DNA of 64,000 nucleotides from the NCBI GenBank assembly GCA_963732385.1, contig CAVSZB010000007.1, forward strand, positions 928,001-992,000, in the 5' to 3' direction. The notes under the pieces are model-generated. The model ran no database searches. It was not told the DNA's origin and worked only from the letters and a program-made list of their open reading frames with translations. Shown here piece by piece: positions 33,328 through 47,399 of this stretch; within the stretch, counting starts at the first letter, position 1, and each line of letters starts with the position of its first letter. The position numbers and the translations under genes are program-made. The stretch is from an uncultured bacterium (GTDB lineage: Bacteria; Krumholzibacteriota; Krumholzibacteriia; LZORAL124-64-63).

Positions 33328-34596
33328 TCAGGTGCCCGACGCGTAATCGTCCTGGTACCGGATCTGCTCCGGGGTGAGGCTGTCGACCGCCACGCCGAGC
33401 GTGCGCAGCTTCAGGCCGGCCAGCATCTGGTCCTGGGAATCCGGGATGTCGTGCACGCTGGCGTCGAGGGTGCGCCCCTCCGCCGCCAGCCTGATCAGGC
33501 TGAGGAACTGGTTCGCGAAGGACATGTCCATGACCTCGCTGGGATGCCCCTCGGCGGCGGCGAGATTGACCAGGCGCCCCTTGGCCAGCACGTAGATACG
33601 GCGGCCGTCGGGCAGCGTGTACTCTTCGCAGTTGGCCCGGATCTCCCGCACCGATTTCGCCAGGCCGGCCAGGTCGGTGAGGTTGATCTCGCAATCGTAG
33701 TGACCTGTATTGCAGACGATCGCGCCGTCCTTCATGCTCTCGAAGTGACGCTTCACGATCACGTCCTTCATGCCGGTGGCCGTGATGAAGATATCGCCGA
33801 CGCGGGCCGCCTCGTCCATCGGCAGGACCCGGTGGCCGTGCAGGACCGCCTTGAGCGCCGCCGTCGGCTTGATCTCCGTGCAGATGACGCTGGCGCCCAG
33901 ACCGTGCGCGCGCATGGCGCAGCCCCAGCCGCAGTGCCCGAAGCCGGCCACGACGAAATTCTTCCCGGCCAGCAGCACGCTCGTGGCGCGCAGGATACCG
34001 TCGATACTCGACTGCCCGGTGCCGAAAACGTTGTCGAAGTCCCACTTCGTCTCGGCGTCGTTGACGGCAATGACCGGGTACTTCAGGGCGCCGGCGGCGG
34101 CCATGGCGCGCAGCCGATGCACACCGGTCGTCGTCTCCTCCGTGCCGCCGATGATCGTCTTCGCCAGTTCCGGATGCCGGTTATGGACCGAGAAGATAAG
34201 GTCGGCGCCGTCGTCGAGCGTCAGCGTGGGGCGGAAGTCGAGCGTGCGGTCGATGGCCCAGTAGAACTCCTCGGTGTTCATGCCGTGCCAGGCGAAGATC
34301 GGCACGCCCAGATCGGCCAGCGCGGCCGCCACCTCGTCCTGCGTCGAGAGCGGATTGCAGCCGGACCACGACACCTCGGCACCCGCGGCCACGAGCGTCT
34401 TCACCAGGACCGCGGTCTCCTTCGTCACGTGGAGACAGCCCGCCACGCGCATGCCGCGCAGACTCTGCTTGCGCGCATGCTCCTCGCGCAACGCCATGAG
34501 CACCGGCATGCGGGCCTCCGCCCAGTCGATCTTCAGGTGGCCCTGGGGCGCCAGGCCGGGGTCGGCCACCTTGCAGGCAAGCTTCTGGTCAGCCAT
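33328..34596 (-). CDS. ahcY: Adenosylhomocysteinase
   Basis: CLHVTKETAVL, GCNPLSTQD, LDDGAD, EETTTGV, KWDFDN..GTGQS, GRLVNL, GHPSEVMDMSFANQ. Confidence 0.97.
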   Translation of the reverse strand: MADQKLACKVADPGLAPQGHLKIDWAEARMPVLMALREEHARKQSLRGMRVAGCLHVTKETAVLVKTLVAAGAEVSWSGCNPLSTQDEVAAALADLGVPIFAWHGMNTEEFYWAIDRTLDFRPTLTLDDGADLIFSVHNRHPELAKTIIGGTEETTTGVHRLRAMAAAGALKYPVIAVNDAETKWDFDNVFGTGQSSIDGILRATSVLLAGKNFVVAGFGHCGWGCAMRAHGLGASVICTEIKPTAALKAVLHGHRVLPMDEAARVGDIFITATGMKDVIVKRHFESMKDGAIVCNTGHYDCEINLTDLAGLAKSVREIRANCEEYTLPDGRRIYVLAKGRLVNLAAAEGHPSEVMDMSFANQFLSLIRLAAEGRTLDASVHDIPDSQDQMLAGLKLRTLGVAVDSLTPEQIRYQDDYASGT

Positions 34597-34656
34597 TCGT
34601 TCTCCCGTCGGTTAGGGATCGGTTGCCGGACGATCGTGGGTCAGCCCCGCGCCCGG

Positions 34657-35700
34657 TCATGCGCTCACATCAGCCGGCGTGCCGGCGGCAGCGGGCCGGG
34701 CAGCCACCGCCAGGAACAGGTCCGGCCACCCGGCGCCGTCGCGACGCCGGCGCCCGCCGGCGGGCGGGGCGGCGGGCCGAGTCGCATAGGCCAGCGGCGC
34801 CAGCCCCGCCTGGCGCAGCAGCCGTTCCAGTTCATCCCGCGCGAAGCCGAGCCACTGGTGACCCCGCTCCTCCCGCATCCAGGCCTGCTCGTGCCGCGTG
34901 AAATCGAGCAGCACGACGCGTCCGCCCGGACGCACGACCCGCGCCAGCTCGGCCAGCGCCGTGGCCGGTCGCGCCACATGCCTCAGGACCATCGAGGCAA
35001 ACGCGGCATCGCACACTCCGTCGCGCAGGGGCAGCGCCTGCACGTCGGCACGCTCAAAGGTGATCCCCGTCAGCCGTTCCCGCGCGCACGCCTCGCGGGC
35101 ACGATCCAGCATGGCTGAGCTGCTGTCGACCGCGATCACCTGGCAGCCTGCCGCCGCCAGCAGCGGCAGCAGGGCCCCGGTGCCAGTGCCGACATCAAGC
35201 ACCCGCAGACCGGGCGGGACGAGAGCAGCCACCGCGGCCAGGTGGAGTTCTGAACTTTCGAAGTCCCGACGGATGTCGTCCCAGCGCCGGGCCGCCCCGG
35301 CGAAAAAGCGCCCGGCCCGCGCGTCCCGCTCGCGCAGGACCGCGGCCAGCGCGACGTCGTCGGCGACGACGCCGGGCAGCGTTCCCGCGGCCGCGAGCAC
35401 CCCGTCATGCAGCGCGACACCGCCCGCGAATTCGGCCGCTGCGACCGCGGCGTACCAGCTCCAGGTCCCTTCGCGCCGCTGCCGGATCCAGCCCGCCTCG
35501 CGCAGCAGGGCCAGATGCCGGGAAACCTGCGGCTGCCCCGCCCCCAGGACCCGCACGAGTTCCTGCACGTTCAGCTCTTCCCGCCGCAACAGCCACAGCA
35601 GACGCAGCCGGGTCGGATCGCTCACCGCCCGCAGGATCTCCTGGGGAGCGGGAGCCGACGCTCCTGGCTGGCTGGAGGCTATATATCCCTTCATACGCAT
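34657..35700 (-). CDS. ArsR HTH plus SAM-dependent methyltransferase fusion regulator (SahR-like)
   Basis: SDPTRLRLL..ELNVQEL..QPQVSRHL..RREG; FFAGAARRWD; VLDVGTGTG; MVLRHV..P; immediately upstream of ahcY; start at 35700 or 35694. Confidence 0.88.
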   Translation of the reverse strand: MRMKGYIASSQPGASAPAPQEILRAVSDPTRLRLLWLLRREELNVQELVRVLGAGQPQVSRHLALLREAGWIRQRREGTWSWYAAVAAAEFAGGVALHDGVLAAAGTLPGVVADDVALAAVLRERDARAGRFFAGAARRWDDIRRDFESSELHLAAVAALVPPGLRVLDVGTGTGALLPLLAAAGCQVIAVDSSSAMLDRAREACARERLTGITFERADVQALPLRDGVCDAAFASMVLRHVARPATALAELARVVRPGGRVVLLDFTRHEQAWMREERGHQWLGFARDELERLLRQAGLAPLAYATRPAAPPAGGRRRRDGAGWPDLFLAVAARPAAAGTPADVSA

Positions 35701-35732
35701 TAATGAATACCAAAGGCCCGGACAGCCGTCAA
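35690..35732 (-). promoter_or_regulatory. Promoter of sahR-like/ahcY with an overlapping palindromic operator
   Basis: TTGACG-N17-TATTCA; palindrome TTCAT-N8-ATGAA (35690-35707) over the -10 box and start codon. Confidence 0.6.
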
Positions 35733-35782
35733 GTGGTGGAATCCGCTCTGCCGTGTCTTGGCACCCGCCGCGGAGCGATGGG

Positions 35783-37099
35783 TCAGGTGGAAACGACCGG
35801 GGTCGCAACGCCGGTCGGGCCGAGGCAGGCGTACCACAGCAGGTCGGTCAACGGCAGCACCGGCAAAGCCGGCGAGCGTTTCCCCAGCGCGGCCTGGATC
35901 TGGCCTAGGCAGCCGGGATTGCCGGTCACCACGAGATCCGCTCCGGTCGCGGCCAGGTTGCCCGCCTTGCGCCGGCCCATCCGCGCCGACAGGTCAGGAT
36001 GCAGCAGCGCGTACGGTCCGCCGCTGCCGCAACAGACCTCCGCTTCCTCCGGATCGACGATCGTCAGGCCGGGGATGCGCGCCAGCAGCGCGCGCGGCTC
36101 GCGCACGATCCCCTGGCCGTGTCGCGCGTGGCAGGGATCGTGGTAGACGACGCGCAGCGGCATCGTTTGCGCCGGCGGCAGCGACCGCCCGGCCAGCAGC
36201 ACGGCGGCATCGCGCACCCGGTCCGCCAGCGCGGGCGGGGAATGCCGCAGTTCCAGACCGCAGCCGGCCGCCTCCACCACAACCACGTCCATCCCGTCGA
36301 CCGGCGCGAAGGCCGCCAGGTTCACCGCGCGCGACCGCGCTGCTGTCTCTGACTGGCCGGCGTGCGCCGCCAGCGCGCCACAGCAGGTCTGTCCCCCGAC
36401 CTCCACCAGTTCGCAGCCGGCCGCCACGAGCAGCGCGCGCAGGCGACGCTGCGACGCCGGCAGCAGGTCGGCGCTGGCGCAGCCGGCGAAAAGGGCGACG
36501 CGCAGCGGAGGGCCGGACGCGCCGGCCGGCGTCGTCAGCGGCGGCCTCTCCACCGCGGGCAAGGGCGTTCGCCCCGCGCCTGCCCGCGCGGTCAGGCGGT
36601 CCAGCAGCCGCACCAGGGCGGCGTCGCCGGGGGACCACGGCACGCTCGCCGCGAGATGCCGCAGCATCGCCGCCGGTCCGCGCCCGCCTGGCCCGGCGAA
36701 GGCGCGGACCGGCACCGTCGCGGCGCGCAGCCCCCGCAGGACGCCGCGCCGCGCCAGGAGGGAGGCCATGACCCGGGCGCCGGCGCCGCGTCGAGCCGCG
36801 TGCCCGAGCGCCTTGGCCGCCTCGAACAGATCGAGCGCCACGCCGCTCGGGCAGGCGGTGATGCAGGCCTGACAGCCGAGACACTGGTCGAAGGCGGTCA
36901 GGGCGGACGGCTCGGGCGGCCGTTCCGGAGCGGCCAGCAGTTCCCCGAGCAACAGCAGCCGCCCGCGCGGCGACTGCGCCTCGCTGCCGGTGGCGAGATA
37001 GGTGGCGCAGTGCGGCAGGCAGAGACCGCACTGGATGCAGGAGCGGAGCAGACGGTCGAGGCGCGCGCGCAGCGCGGGGTCATCGCTCGGGAGGCTCAC
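35783..37099 (-). CDS. glcF: GlcF-like Fe-S subunit (2x 4Fe-4S plus CCG domains)
   Basis: GTGA overlap; CIQCGLCLPHCATY, SPRGR, CLGCQACITACPSGV, CCGAL, YHDPCH..HGQ, CCGSGG, GNPGC. Confidence 0.85.
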   Translation of the reverse strand: MSLPSDDPALRARLDRLLRSCIQCGLCLPHCATYLATGSEAQSPRGRLLLLGELLAAPERPPEPSALTAFDQCLGCQACITACPSGVALDLFEAAKALGHAARRGAGARVMASLLARRGVLRGLRAATVPVRAFAGPGGRGPAAMLRHLAASVPWSPGDAALVRLLDRLTARAGAGRTPLPAVERPPLTTPAGASGPPLRVALFAGCASADLLPASQRRLRALLVAAGCELVEVGGQTCCGALAAHAGQSETAARSRAVNLAAFAPVDGMDVVVVEAAGCGLELRHSPPALADRVRDAAVLLAGRSLPPAQTMPLRVVYHDPCHARHGQGIVREPRALLARIPGLTIVDPEEAEVCCGSGGPYALLHPDLSARMGRRKAGNLAATGADLVVTGNPGCLGQIQAALGKRSPALPVLPLTDLLWYACLGPTGVATPVVST

Positions 37100-39615
37100 G
37101 GCGCCCCCACCGGCAATCGCGGCAGCCAAGACGGGCGCGGCAGCCGGTCGCCGGGATCGAACAGCGCCTTCAGCCCCGCGAGCAGCGGGAGAGTCTGCAG
37201 ATCGGCGGGCGGCGGCGGTTCCGTGAACGCGCCGTCGCGCACGATGGCGTCGAGCTGCCAGGCCTCCGCCATATCGTCGTGGAGCGGCTCCGGCGATCCC
37301 GCGCCTTGCGGGCACCGCGCGATCCAGACCAGGCGCGGCGCGGTCTGGAACACGACGCCCTCCCCCGCTCCGCCCGGCCAGCCGCGCGGCACGCCGCGCG
37401 GCGCCAGCAGGTCCCACGTCCGGCCCGCGCGCGCCCATGTCGGCCACCACGGATGCACGGCGAGTCTGGCCAGTTGCGCGAAGGGAAGCCGTATCTCGTC
37501 CAGGTCGCGCAGTCCAGCCGGGCCGAGAAGCGCCGTGAGCCGTTCCGCGCGCCGGTCCAGGTCCCAGGGACGATCGCGGCCCCCGGCGACGACCAGCAGC
37601 GACCAGCCGTCGACGGGTGTCCACCGGCCGGCGCACACCGCGCCGGCCAGGTCGGCGCCCCAGGTCGCCAGTTCGCGCGCCAAAGGAGCAAGGTCGGGTG
37701 GCGGCGCGCCGGGCCGGCTGACACCGCGCCAGGCGGCCACGGTCTCGGGCAGCGGCTTGAGTTGCAGCGTCGCCCCGGTCACGCGCGCCAGCGCCCCGCC
37801 CGCCCCGCAGAGCAGCCGCGCCAGATCGTACCCGGCGACATTCTTGAAGACCGGCGCGCCGGCGCGCAGCGCCCGGCCATTGCCGGTCACGGCCCACACC
37901 TCGAGCAGCGAATCGCGCAGGGGACCGGTGCCCAGCAGCGAGGGGCAGGGCAACCCGCGGTCGATCGCCTCGCGCAGCGCGGGGGCAGTTCCGAGCCCGA
38001 CCCCGCCCGCCTCGGCAACGACCGCGCCGCACGGGACCCAGAGGCCGCGCGCCAGCGCCAGCGCCTGGATCTCCGCCAGCGGCGCCTCGCCCGGCGCACG
38101 CACCGTGAGCGATTCCCAGGCGAAACTGATCTCCTGCGGCGCCAGCGCCAGCGCCCGCGCAGGCGCCGGTGCGCCAGGCGACGGCGGCGGCGGCAGCGCC
38201 TTGCCCGGGTTGACCAGCACGCGTGGATCGAACAGTTGTTTCACGCCCCGCATCAGGTCGGCCGCGACCGGGTCGAGCTGCCGCCCGATCACGTGCAGTT
38301 TCTCCAGGCCGACGCCATGTTCGCCGGTCACGCTGCCGTCGAGCGCCAGCGTGGCGGCCAGGATCTCGTCCGCCGCCAGGTGCGCGCGGCGGGTCAGATC
38401 GGCGTCGCGATCATCGTAGTGGACGCCGGGGTGCAGATTGCCATCGCCGGCGTGGAAGACGGTCGCCACCCGCACGCCATGGCTCCGACCGATCTCGCCG
38501 ACCAGGCGCACGATCTCCGGCAGCCGCGCCAGCGGGACCACGACATCCATGGTGACGTAGTTGGGCGCGAGGCGTCCCACGGCGCCAAACGCCTTCTTGC
38601 GGCAACGCCAGAGCGCCGCCCGCTCTTCGTCATCAACGGCCCGACGCACCTCGCGGGCGCCACGCTCGCCCAGCAGCCGCGCCGCGCGGTCCGCGTCCTC
38701 GGCCACGGCCTCGGCCAGCCCGCCGAACTCCACGATCATGGCCGCTTCGACGTCGGTCGGGAAACCGAAGTGGAACGCCTCCTCCACCGCCTCGAGCATC
38801 GCCTGGTCGACCATCTCCACCGCTTCGGGCAGCAATCCGGTGCCCATCAGGGCCACCACGGCAGCCGTAGCGTCGTCGAGCCTGGGGAACAGCGCCAGCA
38901 GGGTGATCAGCGTTGGCGGTTCCGGTGTCAGCCGCACGCGCGCGGAAGTGACGAGGCCAAGCGTGCCCTCGCTGCCGGTCAGCAACGCGCGCAGGTCGAA
39001 GCCGCGTTCGTACGGGAGGCCGGCGCCGGTGACGCACAGCTGCCCCTGTGCGTCCACCCACTCCAGCGCGAGGACGTGATTGAGCGTAACACCAACCTTC
39101 AGCGTATGTGGCCCGCCGGCGTTCTCGGCGACATTGCCCCCCAGCGTGGCGGCGCTCTGGCTGCTCGGATCGGGCGCGAAACAGAGGCTGTACGGGCGCG
39201 CCGCCCGGGAGAGACGCTCGTTCACCACGCCGGCCCCGGCATCGGCGCGACCGGCCTCCGCCGCGATGATGCAGCGGTCGAGCCGCGCCAGTCCGATCAC
39301 CAAAGCACCCGCGGGCGGCACCGCCCCGCCCGACAGACCGGTGCCCGCGCCCCGCGCCACCCACGGCACCCCGTGGCGCGCACAGGCCGCCACCACGGCG
39401 GCAGCCTGCGCGGCGTCGCGCGGCAGAGCCACCCCCAGCGGCGATCCCCCCGCAAGGTGCGAGGCATCGCGGGCATAGACCGCGCGGGCGGCCGGATCGA
39501 CCAGCAGTTCCCGCGGACCGAGCAGACGACGCAGGTCGCGCAGCAGCGCCAGGCCGGCCGACGCGGCGACGGGAACGGCGGAACCGCAGGCGGTGATGAC
39601 GGGCGACAGCGGCAA
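37096..39615 (-). CDS. glcD: FAD-linked oxidase: GlcD domain fused to a GlcE-like domain
   Basis: RGAGTGLSGGA, APDPSSQ, GGNVAENAGG, GSEGTLG, FHAGDGNLHP, GEHGVG, NPGK; then KNVAGYDLARLL..LQLKPLPE. Confidence 0.88.
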   Translation of the reverse strand: MPLSPVITACGSAVPVAASAGLALLRDLRRLLGPRELLVDPAARAVYARDASHLAGGSPLGVALPRDAAQAAAVVAACARHGVPWVARGAGTGLSGGAVPPAGALVIGLARLDRCIIAAEAGRADAGAGVVNERLSRAARPYSLCFAPDPSSQSAATLGGNVAENAGGPHTLKVGVTLNHVLALEWVDAQGQLCVTGAGLPYERGFDLRALLTGSEGTLGLVTSARVRLTPEPPTLITLLALFPRLDDATAAVVALMGTGLLPEAVEMVDQAMLEAVEEAFHFGFPTDVEAAMIVEFGGLAEAVAEDADRAARLLGERGAREVRRAVDDEERAALWRCRKKAFGAVGRLAPNYVTMDVVVPLARLPEIVRLVGEIGRSHGVRVATVFHAGDGNLHPGVHYDDRDADLTRRAHLAADEILAATLALDGSVTGEHGVGLEKLHVIGRQLDPVAADLMRGVKQLFDPRVLVNPGKALPPPPSPGAPAPARALALAPQEISFAWESLTVRAPGEAPLAEIQALALARGLWVPCGAVVAEAGGVGLGTAPALREAIDRGLPCPSLLGTGPLRDSLLEVWAVTGNGRALRAGAPVFKNVAGYDLARLLCGAGGALARVTGATLQLKPLPETVAAWRGVSRPGAPPPDLAPLARELATWGADLAGAVCAGRWTPVDGWSLLVVAGGRDRPWDLDRRAERLTALLGPAGLRDLDEIRLPFAQLARLAVHPWWPTWARAGRTWDLLAPRGVPRGWPGGAGEGVVFQTAPRLVWIARCPQGAGSPEPLHDDMAEAWQLDAIVRDGAFTEPPPPADLQTLPLLAGLKALFDPGDRLPRPSWLPRLPVGAP

Positions 39616-39659
39616 GGTCTCTCCGCACGATCAGGTCGAAGGGCGCCAGGGATCCTGTT

Positions 39660-40214
39660 TCAGATCAGGTCGCGCACGATTTCGGGGCGGGGGTTGGCGA
39701 TGATCGCGGTCTGGACGAGCATCCCCTTGCCCCGCGCGACCGCCGCGGCGCTCTCCACGGCGGCCGTGACCGCCGCGAGCTGCCCCGTGAAGGTGAGAAA
39801 CGCCTTGCCGCCGAGCGCCATGGCGAGACGCATCTCCATGAATTCCACCGACGCGGTCTTCGCGGCGGCGTCGGCCGCCTCGAGCATCGTGGAGACGCTG
39901 AAGGTCTCGACCAGGCCGAGGGCGTCGAGCGAGCCGGGCTGGCAGACGTTGCCCAGGGCCGGCAGCAGCGCCGGGTGGGCATGCGGCAGGATCATCTCGT
40001 CGACCAGCGACTCCGCCGCCGTGGCCGCTCCCGCGGCAACGCTCGCGCGGACCGCGCCGACATCCCCTTCGATCAGCACGACGTACTTGCCGGAGCAGAC
40101 GGAGCGGTTCATCAGCAGCCGTACGTCGGCCGCCTTGAGCATGGCGTCGGCCGACTCGATGCCACGCACGACATTACTGGTTTCGACCATGCCGAGTGAC
40201 GGATTGCTGCTCAT
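39660..40214 (-). CDS. pduT: Tandem BMC-domain shell protein, PduT-like (BMC-T)
   Basis: LGMVET..GIESADAMLKAA, RSVCSGKY (pore Cys), second domain ALGLVETFS..AADAAAKTA, LGGKA, IIANP. Confidence 0.88.
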   Translation of the reverse strand: MSSNPSLGMVETSNVVRGIESADAMLKAADVRLLMNRSVCSGKYVVLIEGDVGAVRASVAAGAATAAESLVDEMILPHAHPALLPALGNVCQPGSLDALGLVETFSVSTMLEAADAAAKTASVEFMEMRLAMALGGKAFLTFTGQLAAVTAAVESAAAVARGKGMLVQTAIIANPRPEIVRDLI

Positions 40215-40244
40215 GCCTGCTCCTTCGCGGCCCGACCGGCGACC

Positions 40245-41603
40245 TCAGCCGCGCACGATCACGGTGGCCGCCTCGCCGACGCCGGCCACGCGCCCGTCGC
40301 ACGGCGCGTGCACCGGGACTCCCATCTCCCCCTCGGCCACGTCGGCCACCAGCTGCCCCCGCGCCACCCGCTCGCCCGGACGCAGCCGCGGCCGTCCTAC
40401 CGCCCCGGCGTGCTGCCGGTGCGCCACGGTGAGGGTGTCGGGCAACGGGGCCAGGTCGCGATACGGCGCCGGCGCGTCGAAACGACGCAGGTCGAGCCGC
40501 AGTTTCAACATCGCCAGCGGCACGAGGCGGCCGTCGCGCAGCGGGTGAGCCTGGCCACGGTCGGGCGGCGGCTGCGGAAGCGGCCGGCCCGCGGCGGCGG
40601 CCGCGCGCAGCGCGCGTTTCGTCCAGCGGCAGGCGTCGCGCGGGGAGAGATCCTCGGGACAGGCGTACAGATCGCAGAGGCCGCACTCGCAGCAGAGGTT
40701 GCCCCACCCATCGAAATCGTCGGCGCGGTCGGGGCCGAAGCCGAGCCCCCGCATGACGCGATGCGGTTCGACGGCGTAACCGAGCAGATAGCGCGGGCAG
40801 AACTGCGTGCAATAGCTGCACTGGTCGCACGCCGAGCGACCGACGGCGCGCTTGACGCTCTCCGGCTCGGTAACGAAGCGGACCAGACGGTGCGTCGGCG
40901 GCAAAAACAGCAGGGCGGCGGTGGTCTTGGTGACGGCGTGGGCCGGGTCGCGCACCGGCCGGCCCATCATGGCGCCCCCCTCGAGGGCGATCCACGGCTC
41001 GACGCCGCCGGTGTAACCGCCGGCCTGGGCCAGCAGATCCCCGACCGGAGCGCCGAGCGGCACGACCGCCGTGTATGGCCGGCGCACGGCGCCGCAGACG
41101 GTCAGCCAGGTCCCGGTGACCGGCTCGCCGTCGAGCGCCGCAGCCAGATTGACCAACGTCTCCACATTCTGCACCAGCACGCCCACCTCGGTGGGGAATC
41201 CCCCCGCCGGAGGGCGCCGGCCGGTCAGCGCGTGCACGAGCAGGAACTCGTCGCCCGAAGGGTAGGTGTCGTCGAGCCCGGCCACCTCGAACCCGCGCCG
41301 TCGTCCGCAGGCCTGGCGCAACCGATCCAGCAACTCACCGCGTTTTTTCTTCACGGCGATGATCCGCCGTTTCGCCCCCACCAGTTCCGCCGCCCGCGCC
41401 ACCCCGTCGAGCAGCCGCGCCGTGCGTTGCTCCATCAGGTGGAGATCCTTCTCCAGCAACGGCTCGCACTCGGCGCCATTGGCGATGATCGTGTCCGCGA
41501 CGGCGCTCAGCTTGAGATGCGTGGGGTAACCGGACCCGCCGGCGCCAACCACGCCGGCGGCGCGGATCCGCGCCAGCGACTCATCCTTGTGTGCGCGACT
41601 CAC
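40245..41603 (-). CDS. pduS: PduS-like (RnfC-type) flavin/Fe-S oxidoreductase
   Basis: IRAAGVVGAGGSGYPTHLK, ANGAECEPLL, YPSGDE, NVETL, GGAMMG..VTKTT, CDQCSYCTQFCP, CCECGLCDLYACP, PVHAP; GTG start at 41603 or 41612. Confidence 0.88.
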   Translation of the reverse strand: MSRAHKDESLARIRAAGVVGAGGSGYPTHLKLSAVADTIIANGAECEPLLEKDLHLMEQRTARLLDGVARAAELVGAKRRIIAVKKKRGELLDRLRQACGRRRGFEVAGLDDTYPSGDEFLLVHALTGRRPPAGGFPTEVGVLVQNVETLVNLAAALDGEPVTGTWLTVCGAVRRPYTAVVPLGAPVGDLLAQAGGYTGGVEPWIALEGGAMMGRPVRDPAHAVTKTTAALLFLPPTHRLVRFVTEPESVKRAVGRSACDQCSYCTQFCPRYLLGYAVEPHRVMRGLGFGPDRADDFDGWGNLCCECGLCDLYACPEDLSPRDACRWTKRALRAAAAAGRPLPQPPPDRGQAHPLRDGRLVPLAMLKLRLDLRRFDAPAPYRDLAPLPDTLTVAHRQHAGAVGRPRLRPGERVARGQLVADVAEGEMGVPVHAPCDGRVAGVGEAATVIVRG

Positions 41604-41721
41604 CAAGCTCACAGCCGCCCGGATCGGGGTTGCGCGGGAACCGGCGCCGTACGGGCCGGCGGCGAACAGGCCGGCAGTATAGGCCAGGCCGGGGGTCCCC
41701 CACAAGCCCGGCTCCACCGAC

Positions 41722-41754
41722 GACATTGACGCTGCAATGTCACCTGCCTATAAT
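41722..41754 (+). promoter_or_regulatory. Strong sigma70 promoter of etfBA with a palindromic operator over -35
   Basis: TTGACG(41726)-N17-TATAAT(41749); GACATTG-N6-CAATGTC (41722-41741). Confidence 0.75.
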
Positions 41755-41809
41755 CCAGCCCGCGCTCGCGCCAATTGCCCGGCGCCGCCGACGGTCACGA
41801 GGAGGAACG

Positions 41810-42592
41810 ATGAAGATCGCCGTGCTGGTGAAACAGACTCCCGACTCCGAGACCCGGATCGGCCTGACCGGGCCGGCGTCGAAAATCGACGACACTAAAT
41901 TCACTCGCGTGCTGAGCCCCTACGACGCCTACGCCGTCGAGGAGGCCATCCGCATCCGGGAACGCACTCCCGGGACCGAGGTCACCGCCATCACCGTGGG
42001 ACCGCTCGACCGGGTGCGCGAAACGATCAAGAAGGACTGCCTCGCGGTCGGCTGCGACAAGGCGATCGTGGTCAGCGATCCGGCCCTCGCCGACGCGGAC
42101 GAAGCAGGCGTGGCGGCGGTCCTGGCGGCCGTCCTGCGGCAGGACGCCTACGACCTGATCCTCTGCGGCAAGCAGGCCATCGATGACGACGCCGCGCAGG
42201 TCGGCGTGCGCGTGGCGGAAATCCTGGGCCTGGCGCACGTCAGCGTGGTGACGAAACTGGAGCTTGCCGACGGCGCCCTGACCGCCCGGCGCGAAATCGA
42301 GGGGGGCCTCGAGATCGTCACCGCGCAGCTGCCGGCGCTCATCACCTGTCAGAAGGGGCTCAACGAACCGCGGCTGCCGAGCCTGCCGAACATCATGAAG
42401 GCCGGCGCGAAGCCGCTGCAGGTGATCACGTGCGCGGACCTCGGCCTGACGCCGCCCGCGCGCACCTACGAGATCCGCCAGTACGCGCCGCCGCCCGCCC
42501 GCGCGGCGTGCCGGCTGGTCCAGAACGACGATCCCGCCGCGGCGGCGGCCGAGCTGGCCAGACTGCTGCGCGAGGAAGCCAAAGTCATCTGA
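41810..42592 (+). CDS. etfB: Electron transfer flavoprotein beta subunit
   Basis: MKIAVLVKQTPD, PYDAYAVEEA, LCGKQAIDDD, REIEGG, NEPRLPSL. Confidence 0.96.
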   Translation: MKIAVLVKQTPDSETRIGLTGPASKIDDTKFTRVLSPYDAYAVEEAIRIRERTPGTEVTAITVGPLDRVRETIKKDCLAVGCDKAIVVSDPALADADEAGVAAVLAAVLRQDAYDLILCGKQAIDDDAAQVGVRVAEILGLAHVSVVTKLELADGALTARREIEGGLEIVTAQLPALITCQKGLNEPRLPSLPNIMKAGAKPLQVITCADLGLTPPARTYEIRQYAPPPARAACRLVQNDDPAAAAAELARLLREEAKVI

Positions 42593-42611
42593 GGAAGAGG
42601 GAGCCAGGACG

Positions 42612-43589
42612 ATGCCGAACATCGCCGTCTTCATTGAGCAGCGCGATGGCCAGGTCAGGAAAGTGGCCTGGCAGATGATCGCCGAAGCCCGCCGTCTCAC
42701 CGACCAGGCCGGCGGCGAGGTGTGGGGCGTGCACCTGCACGCCGCCGGTTGCGACACGGCGCAGCAGGCCGGCGCGCAGGGCGCACACCGGCTGTTCACC
42801 GCGCAGCACGACCAGTTCAGGCTCTACAACAGCGAGGCCTGGACCGCCGCGATCGTGACGTTCGCGCGCGAGCACAAGCCCGACCTCATCCTGATCGGCG
42901 CCACCGCCCTCGGCAAGGACCTCGCGCCGAAGGTGGCGCAGCGTCTCGGCGCCGCCTGCATCAGCGACAGCATCGCGATCCGGTACGACGGCGCCGCCTT
43001 CGCGGTGCGCCGCCCCATCTATGCCGGCAAGTGCTATGTGGACGTCGTGCCGAAGACCAGCCCCGCCGTGGTGGTCGCGCGCCCGAACGCCTTCGCCCTC
43101 GGCGCGGGCGACGGCGGCGCCGCCGCCGAGACCCCCTTCGCGCCCGGCGTGGACGGTATCGATCTGAAGGCGCGCGTGATCGAAGTGCAGGCGGCGGAAG
43201 GCCGGAAGGTCGAATTGACCGAGGCGGAGGTCATCGTCTCGGGCGGCCGCGGCATCAAGGGCCCCGAGCACTATCACCTGATCGAGGAACTGGCCGCCAG
43301 CCTCGGCGCCGCCGCCGGCGCCAGCCGCGCCATCGTCGATGCCGGCTGGGTCCCCCACGCCAACCAGGTCGGACAGACCGGCAAGACGGTCAGCCCCAAC
43401 CTCTACATCGCCTGCGGCATCAGCGGCGCCATCCAGCATCTGGCCGGCATGTCGTCGAGCAAGTGCATCGTCGCGATCAACAAGGATCCCAACGCCCCCA
43501 TCTTCAAGGTCGCCGACTACGGCATCGTGGGCGACCTCTTCCAGGTCGTGCCGGCGCTGCAGGCGGAAATCGGGAAATTGAAGGGGTAG
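42612..43589 (+). CDS. etfA: Electron transfer flavoprotein alpha subunit
   Basis: [48 protein letters not shown]. Confidence 0.97.
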
Positions 43590-43617
43590 AAGCCGGCAAG
43601 ACCGCTCCGTACGCGAG

Positions 43618-43639
43618 GAAGCCGCCGCGGGGCGGCTTC
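43618..43639. terminator. Hairpin after etfA
   Basis: gaagccgcc-gcgg-ggcggcttc. Confidence 0.55.
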
Positions 43640-43692
43640 TGCGCAGGAACCGCCGACACGACCGGCCCGGCCGACGCTCCGGCGCCAGCCGC

Positions 43693-44073
43693 TCAACCCG
43701 CTGGCTCCTCGTCGTCGTCGTCATCCGGCAACTCGCGCCGCTCCGCGCTGATCCCCATGTAGTTCAGGTCGAGATCCTGCAGCAACTCGCGCACCCGCTC
43801 GGCCCAGGCGGGAGGAACCAGCAGGCGGGCCGGCTGGATCAGGGGGTCGATGACAGCGAAGGTCTCCCCGTGGAGAAGGTACGGGATGCCGTTCGCGTCG
43901 AGCAGACTCTTGATCATGAGGATGTCGCCGACGTTATAGGTCGCCAGGATCTCCTCGGCCTCGATCAGCTCGTCGGCGGCCGCGGCCGGGCGTTCCGGCA
44001 CCAGCGGCACATTGCAGTCGACGCAGGCCGCCACGCCGGCCTGGTATTCGGTCGTACATTTCGGACAGAACAT
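43693..44073 (-). CDS. Zinc-ribbon plus DUF2007-like small protein
   Basis: MFCPKC..CVDC; IKSLLDANGIP; LLVP..ERVRELL. Confidence 0.8.
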   Translation of the reverse strand: MFCPKCTTEYQAGVAACVDCNVPLVPERPAAAADELIEAEEILATYNVGDILMIKSLLDANGIPYLLHGETFAVIDPLIQPARLLVPPAWAERVRELLQDLDLNYMGISAERRELPDDDDDEEPAG

Positions 44074-44175
44074 GGACGTCGCCTTTCGCCAGGGTGCCGG
44101 TCGCCATGGTCGTACAGATCCCCGCCTGCCGACAGTCTCCGTTCACTTCCTGTTCAAAGCTCTGGCAGTCCGGTT

Positions 44176-45267
44176 TCAGGCGCGAGCCTGGCCCGGCCTG
44201 CCCGCCGCCGCGTTCGCCACGTGCCCTCCGCGCAGGCGTGTCTCGACCGCAGCCAGGGCGTCGTCCGCCTCGGCAACGAGTTCCGCGAGGATCTCGCGCA
44301 GCGGCTGCACGCGGTTGACGAGCCCGACGGACTGGCCGGCCATCAGGGACCCGGCCTCCACTTCGCCGTCGACCGCGGCGCGGCGCAGGCTGCCCACCCA
44401 GAAGTGCTCGACTTCGTACTGCGCTTCGGGGCGGGTGATCTCGCCCGCGCGGAGCCTTTCCAGCAGCGTCAGCTGCAGGCGTCCGAACTCCTCCATGGCC
44501 TCGTTTTGCAGCGCGCGCACCGCCACCACGGGCAGCTTGCTGCTGTACTGCGGCGTGGAGATCGCTTCGCGCGAGCGGGCTTTCATGAAGACCTGCTTGA
44601 AGCGCGCGTGGGCGCCGCACTCCTCGGCCACCACGAAGCGCGTGCCGAGCTGGGCGCCGGCCGCTCCCATCAGGCAGAGATGGCCGATCATGCGGCCGTC
44701 GGCGATTCCGCCGGCGATGAAGATCGGCACCTCGTCGAACCTGAACAGGATCTCCTGCAGCAGCACGGTCGTCGAGACATGCCCGATGTGCCCGCCCGCC
44801 TCGCTCCCCTCGAGCACGAGCGCGTCGGCACCGTAGTCGATCATGCGCCGGGCGATGGAATCGGTGCTGGCGAAGCAAATCACCTTCGCGCCGGAATCCT
44901 TCGCCTTCTGCACCTCACTCTGGCGCGGGATCGAGCCGGCGAAAAACATGTGGCTGAGCCGTTTCTCGCAGATGATGTCGAGGTGCGCCTGGTAGTTGGG
45001 CGCGATGACGATGATGTTCGCGCCGAACGGCCGGTCCGTCAGGGCGCGCGTCTCGTCGATGGAAGCGGCGAACTGCGACGGCGGCAGATTGCCCGCGGCC
45101 AGCACGCCGAAGGCGCCCAGGTCGCTCATCTGCGAGACCAGCTTCGGCTCGCTGATCCAGGTCATCGCGCCGCACATGATCGGCAGTTCGACACCGAGAA
45201 AATCCTGGCCGGCCTGCCAGAGCCGGTTCAGGCGCGGAGTCGACCGTACGCTCTCCTGCTTCGCCAT
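44176..45267 (-). CDS. Nitronate monooxygenase / FabK-like enoyl reductase (FMN TIM barrel)
   Basis: PIMCGAMTWIS, PFGANI, EGSEAGGHIG, AGGIADG, GAQLGTRF, MAGQSVG. Confidence 0.88.
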   Translation of the reverse strand: MAKQESVRSTPRLNRLWQAGQDFLGVELPIMCGAMTWISEPKLVSQMSDLGAFGVLAAGNLPPSQFAASIDETRALTDRPFGANIIVIAPNYQAHLDIICEKRLSHMFFAGSIPRQSEVQKAKDSGAKVICFASTDSIARRMIDYGADALVLEGSEAGGHIGHVSTTVLLQEILFRFDEVPIFIAGGIADGRMIGHLCLMGAAGAQLGTRFVVAEECGAHARFKQVFMKARSREAISTPQYSSKLPVVAVRALQNEAMEEFGRLQLTLLERLRAGEITRPEAQYEVEHFWVGSLRRAAVDGEVEAGSLMAGQSVGLVNRVQPLREILAELVAEADDALAAVETRLRGGHVANAAAGRPGQARA

Positions 45268-45383
45268 CGTCTCTCCTTCGCTCGCGCGGCGCACGAACCG
45301 ATACCGGGATCGCCCGGGCCGGACAGCCGGACGGCGCGGTTATCATACTTCAGCGGTCCTGAATCGCAAGATCGGTCGGGCGC

Positions 45384-47399
45384 TCAGCCGTCCGCCAGCC
45401 GGTCCCGGAGCGTCTCGGCAAGGTCGCGCACGACCAGCGTGTCATCGCGGCCGGTCTCCTTGACACCGTCGCCGAGCATCGTCAGGCAGAAGGGGCAGGC
45501 GCTGGCCACTTCCCGCGCGCCGGTGCCGGCCGCCTCGGCGATGCGGTGGTGGTTGATGCGGGTGCCGAGTTTCTCCTCGAGGAACATGCGGCCGCCGCCG
45601 GCGCCGCAGCAGAAGCCCTCGCGGCGGTGGCTCGGCATCTCGACCAGTTCGAGGTCCGGCACGGACCTGAGCACATCGCGCGGGGCATCATAGATGCCGT
45701 TGTGGCGGCCGAGATAGCAGGAGTCGTGGTAGGTCAGCTTCAGCGGCTCGCCGCCGCGCAGCTTCAGCCTCCCCTCGGCGAGGAGGCGAAAGAGCAGTTC
45801 GGAATGGTGGCGAACCTCGACGCCCTCCAGGCCGAACTGCGGGTACTCGTTGCGGAGCGTGTTGAAGCAGTGCGGACAGGCCGTGACGAACTTCCGCGCG
45901 CCGTAACGCCTGAAGGTGTCGATGTTCAGCTGCGCCTGCATCTGGAACAGGTATTCGTGGCCAAGCCGGCGCGACGGATCGCCGCAGCACCCCTCCTCAA
46001 GACCAAGCACGGCGTAGTCGAGACCGGCGCGATCGAACAGTTCGCAGGTGGCGCGCACGACGGCGCGGTTACGCTCGTCGAACGAGCCGGCGCAGCCGAC
46101 GAAGAAGAGCCACTCCGCGCTACCCTTCGCGCCCAGGACCGGCACCGGGGCGTCGCCGATCCAGTCGGCGCGCGCCGCCGCCGGCGCGTTCCACGGGTTG
46201 CTGTTGTTCTCCAGACCCCGCAGCGCGTTCTGCATCTCGGACGGGACACGCGCCTCGGTCATCGTCAGGTACCGACGCTGGTCGATGAGGTGCGGCACGT
46301 GCTCGATCACTACCGGACACGCCGTCTGACACCAGCCGCAGGTCGTGCACGACCAGAGCGTGTCGTCGGTATTGACGTCGCCCGCCAGACGCGGGCGCTC
46401 CAGCGACGCGGCCAGCGCCGCCGCCTCGGCGGGCCGACCCCGCGCCTTCAGTTTGCCGACCTCCTCCAGCCGCGCGCCCAGGCTGAACAGATGGTCGCGC
46501 TCGTCGCAGATCAACGACTTCGGCCGCAACGGCTTGCCGGTCACGGCGGTAGGACAGTGCTCATTGCAGCGTCCGCATTCCGTGCAGGTGAACATGTCCA
46601 GCAGCCGCCGCCATGAGAATTCCTCCACCCGGCCCACGCCGAACGATTCGCGCCCCTCGAACTGCAGCGGATCGGACGCCAGCGGCGGCGTGAGACGCCT
46701 GAGCCAGACGGCCGGCAGCGAGGTCAGGACGTGGAAGTGCTTGCCATACGGCAGGTAATTGAGGAAGCCGAGGACCAGCGCGCAGTGCGCCCAGTACATG
46801 GTCTGCCACCAGTTGCGCGCGGCGGCGGAGTCGAGGCCGACGAACAGCCCTGCCAGCGCGCGCGAGACGAACGCGTAGCCGGCCTCCGGGTGGTCGGGGC
46901 GCAGCCGCAGCAGCGCCGCATCGCCCAGCAGGTCGGTCAGCATGAGCACCGCGATCCAGAGCAGGATGAGCACCCCCTCCACCGACAACGGCAGACGCTC
47001 CGGCCGCGTGACCAGCCGCCGCCAAAGGCCGAAGAGCACCGCGACGATCACGACGACGGCGAAGATGTCCTTCAGCGTGGCGTAGATCAGGCCGGGGCCA
47101 TCACCGAGCAGCGGCAGGTGGAAGTCGGGGGCAAAACCGCGGCCGATGAGGGTCAGCGTGCGCAGCGACACGACGAGGAAGCCGGCGAAGATACCCAGGT
47201 GCATCAGCCCGGCGCCCCGCTCCTGCAGCAGGCGTTGCTGTCCGAAGCCGATCACCAGCAGCGCCCTCAGACGCGCCCAGGGCCGGTCGGTGCGGCGGTC
47301 CGGCTCGGCGGCGCGCAGCAGCCACCAGCGGGCGGCGACCGTGTTGGCGAAGAAGGCGAGGGCCAGCAGCAGCAGCAGGGTCATCGCGACGGGATTCAT
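45384..47399 (-). CDS. Membrane Fe-S/CCG oxidoreductase, FadF/EMO-like (probable ETF:quinone link)
   Basis: TM block with GLMH..IFAGF, YWAH, KHFH; CTECGRCNEHCP, CTTCGWCQTACP, GCAG, CCGD, YHDSCYLGR, CCGAGG, ACPFC. Confidence 0.88.
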   Translation of the reverse strand: MNPVAMTLLLLLALAFFANTVAARWWLLRAAEPDRRTDRPWARLRALLVIGFGQQRLLQERGAGLMHLGIFAGFLVVSLRTLTLIGRGFAPDFHLPLLGDGPGLIYATLKDIFAVVVIVAVLFGLWRRLVTRPERLPLSVEGVLILLWIAVLMLTDLLGDAALLRLRPDHPEAGYAFVSRALAGLFVGLDSAAARNWWQTMYWAHCALVLGFLNYLPYGKHFHVLTSLPAVWLRRLTPPLASDPLQFEGRESFGVGRVEEFSWRRLLDMFTCTECGRCNEHCPTAVTGKPLRPKSLICDERDHLFSLGARLEEVGKLKARGRPAEAAALAASLERPRLAGDVNTDDTLWSCTTCGWCQTACPVVIEHVPHLIDQRRYLTMTEARVPSEMQNALRGLENNSNPWNAPAAARADWIGDAPVPVLGAKGSAEWLFFVGCAGSFDERNRAVVRATCELFDRAGLDYAVLGLEEGCCGDPSRRLGHEYLFQMQAQLNIDTFRRYGARKFVTACPHCFNTLRNEYPQFGLEGVEVRHHSELLFRLLAEGRLKLRGGEPLKLTYHDSCYLGRHNGIYDAPRDVLRSVPDLELVEMPSHRREGFCCGAGGGRMFLEEKLGTRINHHRIAEAAGTGAREVASACPFCLTMLGDGVKETGRDDTLVVRDLAETLRDRLADG

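Follow-up and report, generated by a model that had tools for sequence, protein, structure and literature searches.

A satellite PduS-PduT pair that probably serves an SPU-like microcompartment from a likely operon with glcDEF in an uncultured Krumholzibacteriota bacterium

The locus considered here raises the question of what a microcompartment electron-transfer pair, pduS and pduT, does beside genes for a glycolate/lactate-type dehydrogenase and an electron transfer flavoprotein (ETF). The window, meaning the whole 64,000-nucleotide stretch analysed, is C7:928001-992000 of the 96%-complete source genome (G000), an uncultured member of the Krumholzibacteriota. The original prediction offered a satellite locus feeding electrons from a 2-hydroxyacid into a microcompartment encoded elsewhere, or a shell-free PduS-PduT complex acting as the NAD(H) module of the dehydrogenase, and recognised neither as a described system. 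The reading preferred here, at a probability of roughly 0.6, is that of a satellite MNdh/BMC-T^SE pair of a compartment resembling the SPU (sugar-phosphate) type, likely co-transcribed with glcDEF and probably not dependent on it. Electron flow is most likely outward, and the neighbours of pduST are likely inherited company.

The pduS gene was placed on the minus strand at 40245..41606; its longest frame begins at 41726, and the probable start is a TTG at 41606, where two congeners have ATG. Pfam matches covered an FMN-NADH domain (PF01512), an SLBB domain (PF10531), two 4Fe-4S motifs (Fer4_17) and a C-terminal RnfC barrel-sandwich domain (PF13375), which are all four domains of MNdh. Both cysteine clusters and the FMN/NADH motifs were invariant in 5 family orthologues. 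The adjoining pduT (39660..40214, minus strand, 30-nt gap) encodes a tandem shell protein with two bacterial microcompartment (BMC) domains (PF00936) and the pore motif SVCSGK. Cys40 in CSGK was aligned with the pore cysteine of PduT (C38) and with CPGK of 3pac and 3nwg and was invariant in 29/29 aligned homologues; the pore cysteine is retained, as had been predicted. By composition no foreign origin was seen, the pair having a third-position G+C content (GC3) of 0.88-0.91, like its neighbours.

PduS/PduT were renamed MNdh/BMC-T^SE by Sutter et al. (2024) with 2,172 loci; the module was shown to oxidise NADH and to deliver electrons to its pore cluster, and it was reported in satellite loci of PVM (18/20) and ACI (5/7) compartments (PMC11626177). 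The satellite terminology is that of PMC4207490 and PMC8217296. The outward model is repeated by a commentary (PMC11725831), the SPU paper (PMC11585597) and an archaeal preprint, and PMC11626177 does not settle what accepts the electrons of BMC-T^SE in vivo, noting no specific co-occurring protein. The present pair resembles this module in its adjacent genes, four-domain MNdh with C-terminal PF13375, BMC-T pore cysteine, satellite position and host compartment with an aldehyde dehydrogenase and without an alcohol dehydrogenase. It differs in its pore motif, CSGK instead of the printed CP(G/S)K (usually CPGK), CSGK being usual in this clade, and in heading a likely operon with (lpdA)-glcDE-glcF opposite etfBA. 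With the domains, the adjacent BMC-T, the pore cysteine and a host shell locus with aldehyde dehydrogenase all found, the pair is, judged by its sequence, the published NAD+-recycling module and in itself ordinary. The claim that no described system was involved therefore fell for the pair, satellites having been reported, and stood for the operon context within the literature searched, where no account of pduST with glc or etf genes was found.

The sole shell-domain match in the window was pduT, and no PF03319 or PF00171 match was obtained, in agreement with the predicted lack of BMC-H, BMC-P and aldehyde dehydrogenase genes. The shell genes absent from the window are present elsewhere in the same genome. 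The genome search with PF00936 and PF03319 that the original prediction had proposed located a main shell locus on the same contig, ~465 kb from pduST, at C7:499.4-502.9 kb (L009:9437-12852). It comprises BMC-H, BMC-P, an aldehyde dehydrogenase that passes NF011927, BMC-T and two more BMC-P. The BMC-T lacks a pore cysteine, and a Cys-less main BMC-T beside a pore-Cys BMC-T^SE is a published contrast (PMC11626177). With a full shell locus on the same contig, carrying an aldehyde dehydrogenase and its own Cys-less BMC-T, the satellite position proposed for pduST is supported.

The gene order of the main locus is that of the SPU3/SPU5 rows of Dataset S1 of PMC11626177 (gene order only was compared), with the BMC-P triplet, BMC-H, BMC-Ts and aldehyde dehydrogenase (AldDH) in one locus in the order P-P-Ts-AldDH-P-H. 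DeoC (PF01791) and RpiB (PF02502) are present in the genome but outside the shell locus. Both have N-terminal extensions, and the extension of a class II aldolase is C-terminal; all three are encoded away from the shell locus. In pattern these terminal extensions resemble encapsulation peptides. The extension of DeoC was found in 15/15 shell-bearing genomes checked, versus 0/3 without a shell match. Extended DeoC, RpiB and aldolase are a further likeness to SPU compartments (PMC11585597, PMC8217296), as is an RpiB-DeoC fusion in relatives, which also occurs in 20 SPU3 loci. The extensions point to a predicted sugar-phosphate metabolosome, termed SPU-like and not SPU because the DeoC and RpiB signature genes are not in the shell locus. 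The signature enzymes and MNdh are instead scattered over four other sites, as in the FRAG and HO types. No match to an Fe-alcohol dehydrogenase (PF00465), PduL (PF06130) or BMC-Tdp was found in the 96%-complete genome; this is another difference, SPU operons without a phosphotransacylase (PTAC) typically encoding Tdp (PMC11585597).

Several observations accompany the putative cargo genes. The extended DeoC (L182:1492-2361) lies within a deoB-cdd-deoC-nucleoside phosphorylase operon, a context that would connect nucleoside salvage with the compartment. Of the two RpiB copies, one (L184:1225-1941) carries a helix and a Pro/Ala linker at its N-terminus and is followed by genes that, judged by eye, resemble those for a deoxynucleoside kinase and an adenosine deaminase. 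The class II aldolase with the C-terminal helix stands alone (L183:1456-2226). Alongside the main locus without PduL, Pta-family genes are present elsewhere in the genome; an RnfC-like paralogue at G000:C3:418913-419815 lies beside Pta-family genes, and low-potential electrons might also be drawn off or supplied by Rnf.

From published work, DeoC would split deoxyribose-5-phosphate inside the shell, and the aldehyde dehydrogenase would yield acetyl-CoA and NADH in the lumen. MNdh would re-oxidise this NADH and relay the electrons from FMN via 2x[4Fe-4S] to the cluster in the pore of the PduT trimer. On the reading preferred here they would then leave the shell for a cytosolic carrier that is not dedicated to the pair, and the neighbouring glc, etf, fabK and EMO genes would likely work on their own.

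The minus-strand series was as predicted, with curated-family support for every gene: pduT is followed after a 44-nt gap by a GlcD/GlcE-like fusion (37096..39615), a predicted FAD 2-hydroxyacid dehydrogenase by family profiles, and this overlaps by 4 nt a GlcF-like Fe-S subunit (35783..37099) with Fer4 and two CCG domains. The 839-aa single frame matches GlcD (residues 62-472) and GlcE (504-627). The set resembles GlcDEF glycolate oxidase and FAD D-lactate dehydrogenases in that parts like GlcD, GlcE and GlcF follow one another as is usual there; the closest solved structure to GlcD is a glycolate oxidase (PDB 9qgz), and its best solved relatives also include D-lactate dehydrogenases. It differs in the fusion of GlcD with GlcE, which are separate in outgroup loci, and in scores below the NCBIfam equivalog cut-offs (GlcD 421/568, GlcE 92/284, GlcF 159/333 bits). 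The FabK score was also below its cut-off, and the Glc and FabK names are for this reason given as likenesses. No transmembrane segment was detected in GlcF by hydropathy scan. The fused form was matched in 30/36 family relatives, some of them cut by contig ends; in outgroup families glcD is a separate frame.

On the plus strand, etfB (41810..42592) and etfA (42612..43589, the ETF alpha subunit by family profiles) diverge from pduS across a 203-bp gap between the etfB ATG at 41810 and the pduS TTG at 41606, which matches the ~200 bp of the original prediction. EtfB, by family profiles and alignment a predicted canonical (AMP-type) beta subunit, has Asp at the column of CarD Gly124, as in human ETF, and Asp was also found in 23/24 relatives. 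A glycine (A. fermentans Gly123) is said to be invariant in bifurcating ETFs (PMC12630350); we infer that the alignment column is the Gly123 position, and the ETF looks non-bifurcating and canonical. An FAD hydroxyacid dehydrogenase gene near etfBA is also a feature of the confurcating Ldh-EtfAB of Acetobacterium woodii (PMC9232219) and of the canonical Ldh-ETF of Fusobacterium (PMC12630350). Unlike in these systems, the dehydrogenase here has its own Fe-S subunit and the seemingly canonical etfBA is divergent from it, beside an EMO-like gene.

Convergence of the fabK-like and membrane Fe-S/CCG genes on etfA was found as predicted, except that a DUF2007 gene between etfA and fabK (43693..44073, minus strand) had been missed; its small product has a segment resembling a zinc ribbon at the N-terminus. 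The FabK/nitronate-monooxygenase-like flavoprotein lies at 44176..45294 on the minus strand, with a probable ATG near 45267. The FadF/EMO-like membrane oxidoreductase (45384..47399, minus strand) has a hydrophobic N-terminal region containing His residues, two CX2CX2CX3CP motifs and two CCG domains. The EMO label follows from its architecture and from PMC10818641, and its function is predicted. With EMO/FadF it shares an N-terminal membrane domain, a pair of ferredoxin-type motifs, a pair of CCG domains and a position beside etfBA; in a departure from that setting, no acyl-CoA dehydrogenase gene was identified in the 35783..47399 interval. Downstream of glcF, arsR-methyltransferase and ahcY (33328..35808, minus strand) belong to a family-wide block and are functionally unrelated (S-adenosylmethionine, SAM, cycle). 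The ArsR-methyltransferase fusion directly precedes ahcY and is kept in most relatives; it resembles SahR-type regulators of the SAM cycle.

A predicted sigma70-like promoter for pduS-pduT-glcDE-glcF was read by eye at 41676..41705 on the minus strand, with a weak -35 and a TATACT -10; the promoter scan did not call it. TTGAGC-17-TATA(A/C)T-like sites lie directly upstream of pduS in G006, G008 and G025. The scan did call a predicted etfBA promoter at 41726..41754 on the plus strand (TTGACG-17-TATAAT, 11/12), and similar sites were found in G001, G002, G004, G007, G008, G014, G023 and G036. Because a promoter-like site stands next to pduS and the downstream gaps are short, pduST and glcDEF are likely co-transcribed. 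In one metatranscriptome study (three runs) the word share was 6-8%, and contigs of a ~90-95% alike relative covered all bins, DNA being a possible source. Among 24 listed of 526 pieces, which derive from a relative, one bridged pduS-pduT and none pduT-glcD.

PduS orthologues (at least 62% identity) were found in 6/60 relatives, all of the same family, giving pduST in 7/61 genomes; in 17 other genomes nothing beyond partial, RnfC-like matches was obtained. All family pduST loci occupy the same slot as far as the contigs reach. Both sides were seen in G002, G006 and G025, the etf side in G001 and the metagenome locus L267, the lpdA side in G028, and the etf side plus an apparent glcD start near the contig end in G008. 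In the latter (L047:11216-12236) the glcD-like start runs into unrelated sequence and the rest of glcD stands at the end of another contig, a probable misassembly; the many frame breaks of G002 (L050, L217) in pduS, pduT, AldDH and neighbours are probably assembly errors. In G006, G025 and G028 pduT is followed by lpdA.

The surrounding block does not require the pair. Of 30 family genomes without pduST, 24 had a glcDE match, which diverged from etfB within 10 kb in 20 and was cut by contig ends in 4; the glcF-glcD/E <> etfBA-fabK-EMO block thus persists without pduST in 20/24 informative relatives. Recurrent genes in those 20 stretches were fabK (15), ahcY (15), an lpdA-like gene (13) and the EMO-like gene, which lies beside etfA in 13, the other 7 stretches ending short of that position. 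Without pduST the slot holds an RND pump, MFS, Omp85, lipase, NmrA, peptidase or sulfatase gene, or nothing. In G009 and G032 lpdA is kept without glcDEF, and in G016 the unit is missing altogether.

The family sequences of PduS and PduT make up a single clade (100/100), which divides in the same way as the hosts do by RpoB. Monophyly of the pduST genomes was rejected by RpoB (p-AU 6e-75, three changes) in a tree of 26 rows, from which the partial G034 was removed; no RpoB match was available for G001, G022 and G025. RpoB was used because a FastTree of the block genes left the pduST genomes unresolved. A late insertion of pduST in one subclade was also considered and was ruled out by the RpoB tree. 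The simplest reading of these sequences would be one acquisition near the family base followed by several losses; pduST may also have been transferred between the two host clades. Adjacency of pduST and glcDEF, as far as its predicted conservation is concerned, is conserved, within one family only and from one acquisition event. Under the preferred reading the pair would have entered the slot once near the family base, sharing a promoter with (lpdA)-glcDE-glcF, and would have been lost wherever the compartment switched to a version with the gated-pore BMC-Tdp.

Two versions of the compartment were distinguished. All 7/7 pduST genomes have main-locus version 1, beside a GlmU-like gene, a version common to two outgroup families. 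In 8/9 sampled family genomes without pduST the shell locus is headed by an RpiB-DeoC fusion and BMC-Tdp, DeoC/RpiB being within the locus. The fusion has an internal extension and is followed by a CcmP-like BMC-Tdp (L222-L229, L232, L234); this version was seen in both RpoB clades and one outgroup family, suggesting that the compartment version was repeatedly replaced. BMC-Tdp was found in 0/7 pduST genomes versus 38/42 other shell-bearing genomes, kin among them not being independent. It is with the version of the compartment that the presence of pduST varies, and not with the dehydrogenase. Near mutual exclusion of MNdh/BMC-T^SE and BMC-Tdp is a family pattern and no rule; universal exclusion is ruled out by Dataset S1 rows carrying both. 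No statement of an exclusion pattern was found in the literature searched.

Recurrence of the arrangement was sought in 156 distant MNdh loci, 77 from genomes and 79 from metagenomes, with L052-L054 of 80 genome loci excluded as family repeats; at least 1.5 kb of downstream sequence was available for 62/77 genome loci and 40/80 metagenome loci. The pduST-glcDEF-etf order was found in 0/156. The genome loci had 2 GlcD and 1 ETF, all on the opposite strand, and the metagenome loci 0 GlcD, 0 ETF and one GlcF-like gene upstream. The 88 open reading frames downstream of distant loci were a miscellany. BMC-Tdp was matched in 0/50 distant MNdh genomes (50/77 loci, no positive control), a weak result confounded by compartment type. 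One metagenome locus (L280) has two pduS copies in one microcompartment cluster, and pduT precedes pduS in L101, L073, L128, L276 and L345.

A number of findings weigh against the preferred reading. The terminal extensions are the sole ground on which encapsulation of the cargo is inferred, and their hydrophobic moment was no different from that of controls, which scored as high. Four shell-bearing genomes have neither pduST nor BMC-Tdp, and MNdh and Tdp share a locus in 4/4 SPU3 and 4/7 SPU5 Dataset S1 rows and in L303. All 8/8 family-level PduS loci (7 genomes and L267) are in this slot in two host clades, and the link is therefore long-lasting. The promoter-like site stays by pduS despite a sulfatase or peptidase insertion towards etfB, the gaps from pduT to lpdA or glcD are only 30-55 nt, glcDE is matched in each of the 7/7 pduST genomes, and in the sister genome G016 both pduST and glcDEF are missing. 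The conserved slot also counts in favour of a rival in which the operon is kept as respiratory wiring: from the PduT pore cluster electrons would reach menaquinone by way of the co-transcribed GlcF, or through the canonical ETF followed by EMO. Transfer would be downhill, from clusters at -0.35 to -0.15 V (PMC11626177) to menaquinone at -80 mV (PMC10818641), the promoter is likely shared, no pduST genome is without glcDE, and the acceptor of BMC-T^SE is stated as unknown in PMC11626177. We nevertheless consider a dedicated outlet rather unlikely. One acquisition is one independent observation, gene order in the family tends to be kept even where functions are unrelated (ahcY in 15/20 stretches), RND pump genes sit in the same slot and orientation, and there was no recurrence in the 156 distant loci. 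Dataset S1 likewise had 0 entries for pf02913, pf01012 and pf00766, which is weak in that it lists trimmed loci only. Co-occurrence of pduST and glcDE in 6/6 relatives is unremarkable because glcDE is found in 30/36.

A link through the substrate, in which aldolase and aldehyde dehydrogenase would form lactyl- or glycolyl-CoA and the freed 2-hydroxyacid would be oxidised outside by GlcDEF, with pduST co-regulated for that reason, is less probable still. The extended class II aldolase and the solved relatives of GlcD are in its favour, and GlcD at 40% identity or more was found in 13/14 genomes of three shell-bearing outgroup families versus 0/10 of four families without a shell match. Related genomes are not independent, however; G009, G016 and G032 have shells without a glcDE match and G017 has glcDE without a shell match, the substrates of aldolase and GlcD are putative, and loss of pduST alone is left unexplained. 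Inward flow from GlcDEF/ETF by way of PduT and PduS, with NADH formed within the compartment (the supply of hydroxyacid electrons that had been predicted), appears very improbable and runs counter to the published outward role of MNdh. PduS does resemble RnfC and NuoF, proteins able to work in both directions, and GlcD the confurcating LctD. Given the potential of NAD, such a transfer would be uphill without bifurcation. The lactate/pyruvate couple lies at -190 mV (PMC12630350), EtfB has Asp in place of the glycine, and NADH is the product of the one redox enzyme identified for the compartment, no encapsulated reductase having been found. The shell-free NAD(H) module, with the microcompartment left behind, is equally hard to credit, since its premise is lost with a shell locus present elsewhere in the genome. 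Likely co-transcription with glcDE-glcF argues for it, and in G000, G002 and apparently G008 the pair directly adjoins glcD, at the place taken in relatives by lpdA, which likewise encodes an NAD(H) flavoprotein. All 7/7 pduST genomes have shell genes, though, 20 relatives keep glcDEF and etfBA without pduST, 7/20 relatives have glcDEF with neither pduST nor lpdA, G006, G025 and G028 carry both, and pduST follows the compartment.

The MNdh/BMC-T^SE module and its satellite positions were known; as far as was searched, the operon context with glcDEF opposite etfBA is new. Tentatively, and with low probability, the operon may reveal the missing outside acceptor (GlcF, or ETF and EMO, leading to menaquinone), with the electron port and BMC-Tdp interchangeable and swapped at least three times in the family. 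The locus offers two concrete, expressible candidates for such an acceptor, GlcF and ETF/EMO, the genomic case for them being one event. If this bolder reading were true, the compartment would be a respiratory input, passing electrons of lumenal NADH to menaquinone via BMC-T^SE, and the port and the gated-pore BMC-Tdp would be alternative answers to cofactor recycling within one family. The MNdh-bearing and Tdp-bearing shells of close kin form a natural pair for the question of electron export versus cofactor exchange.

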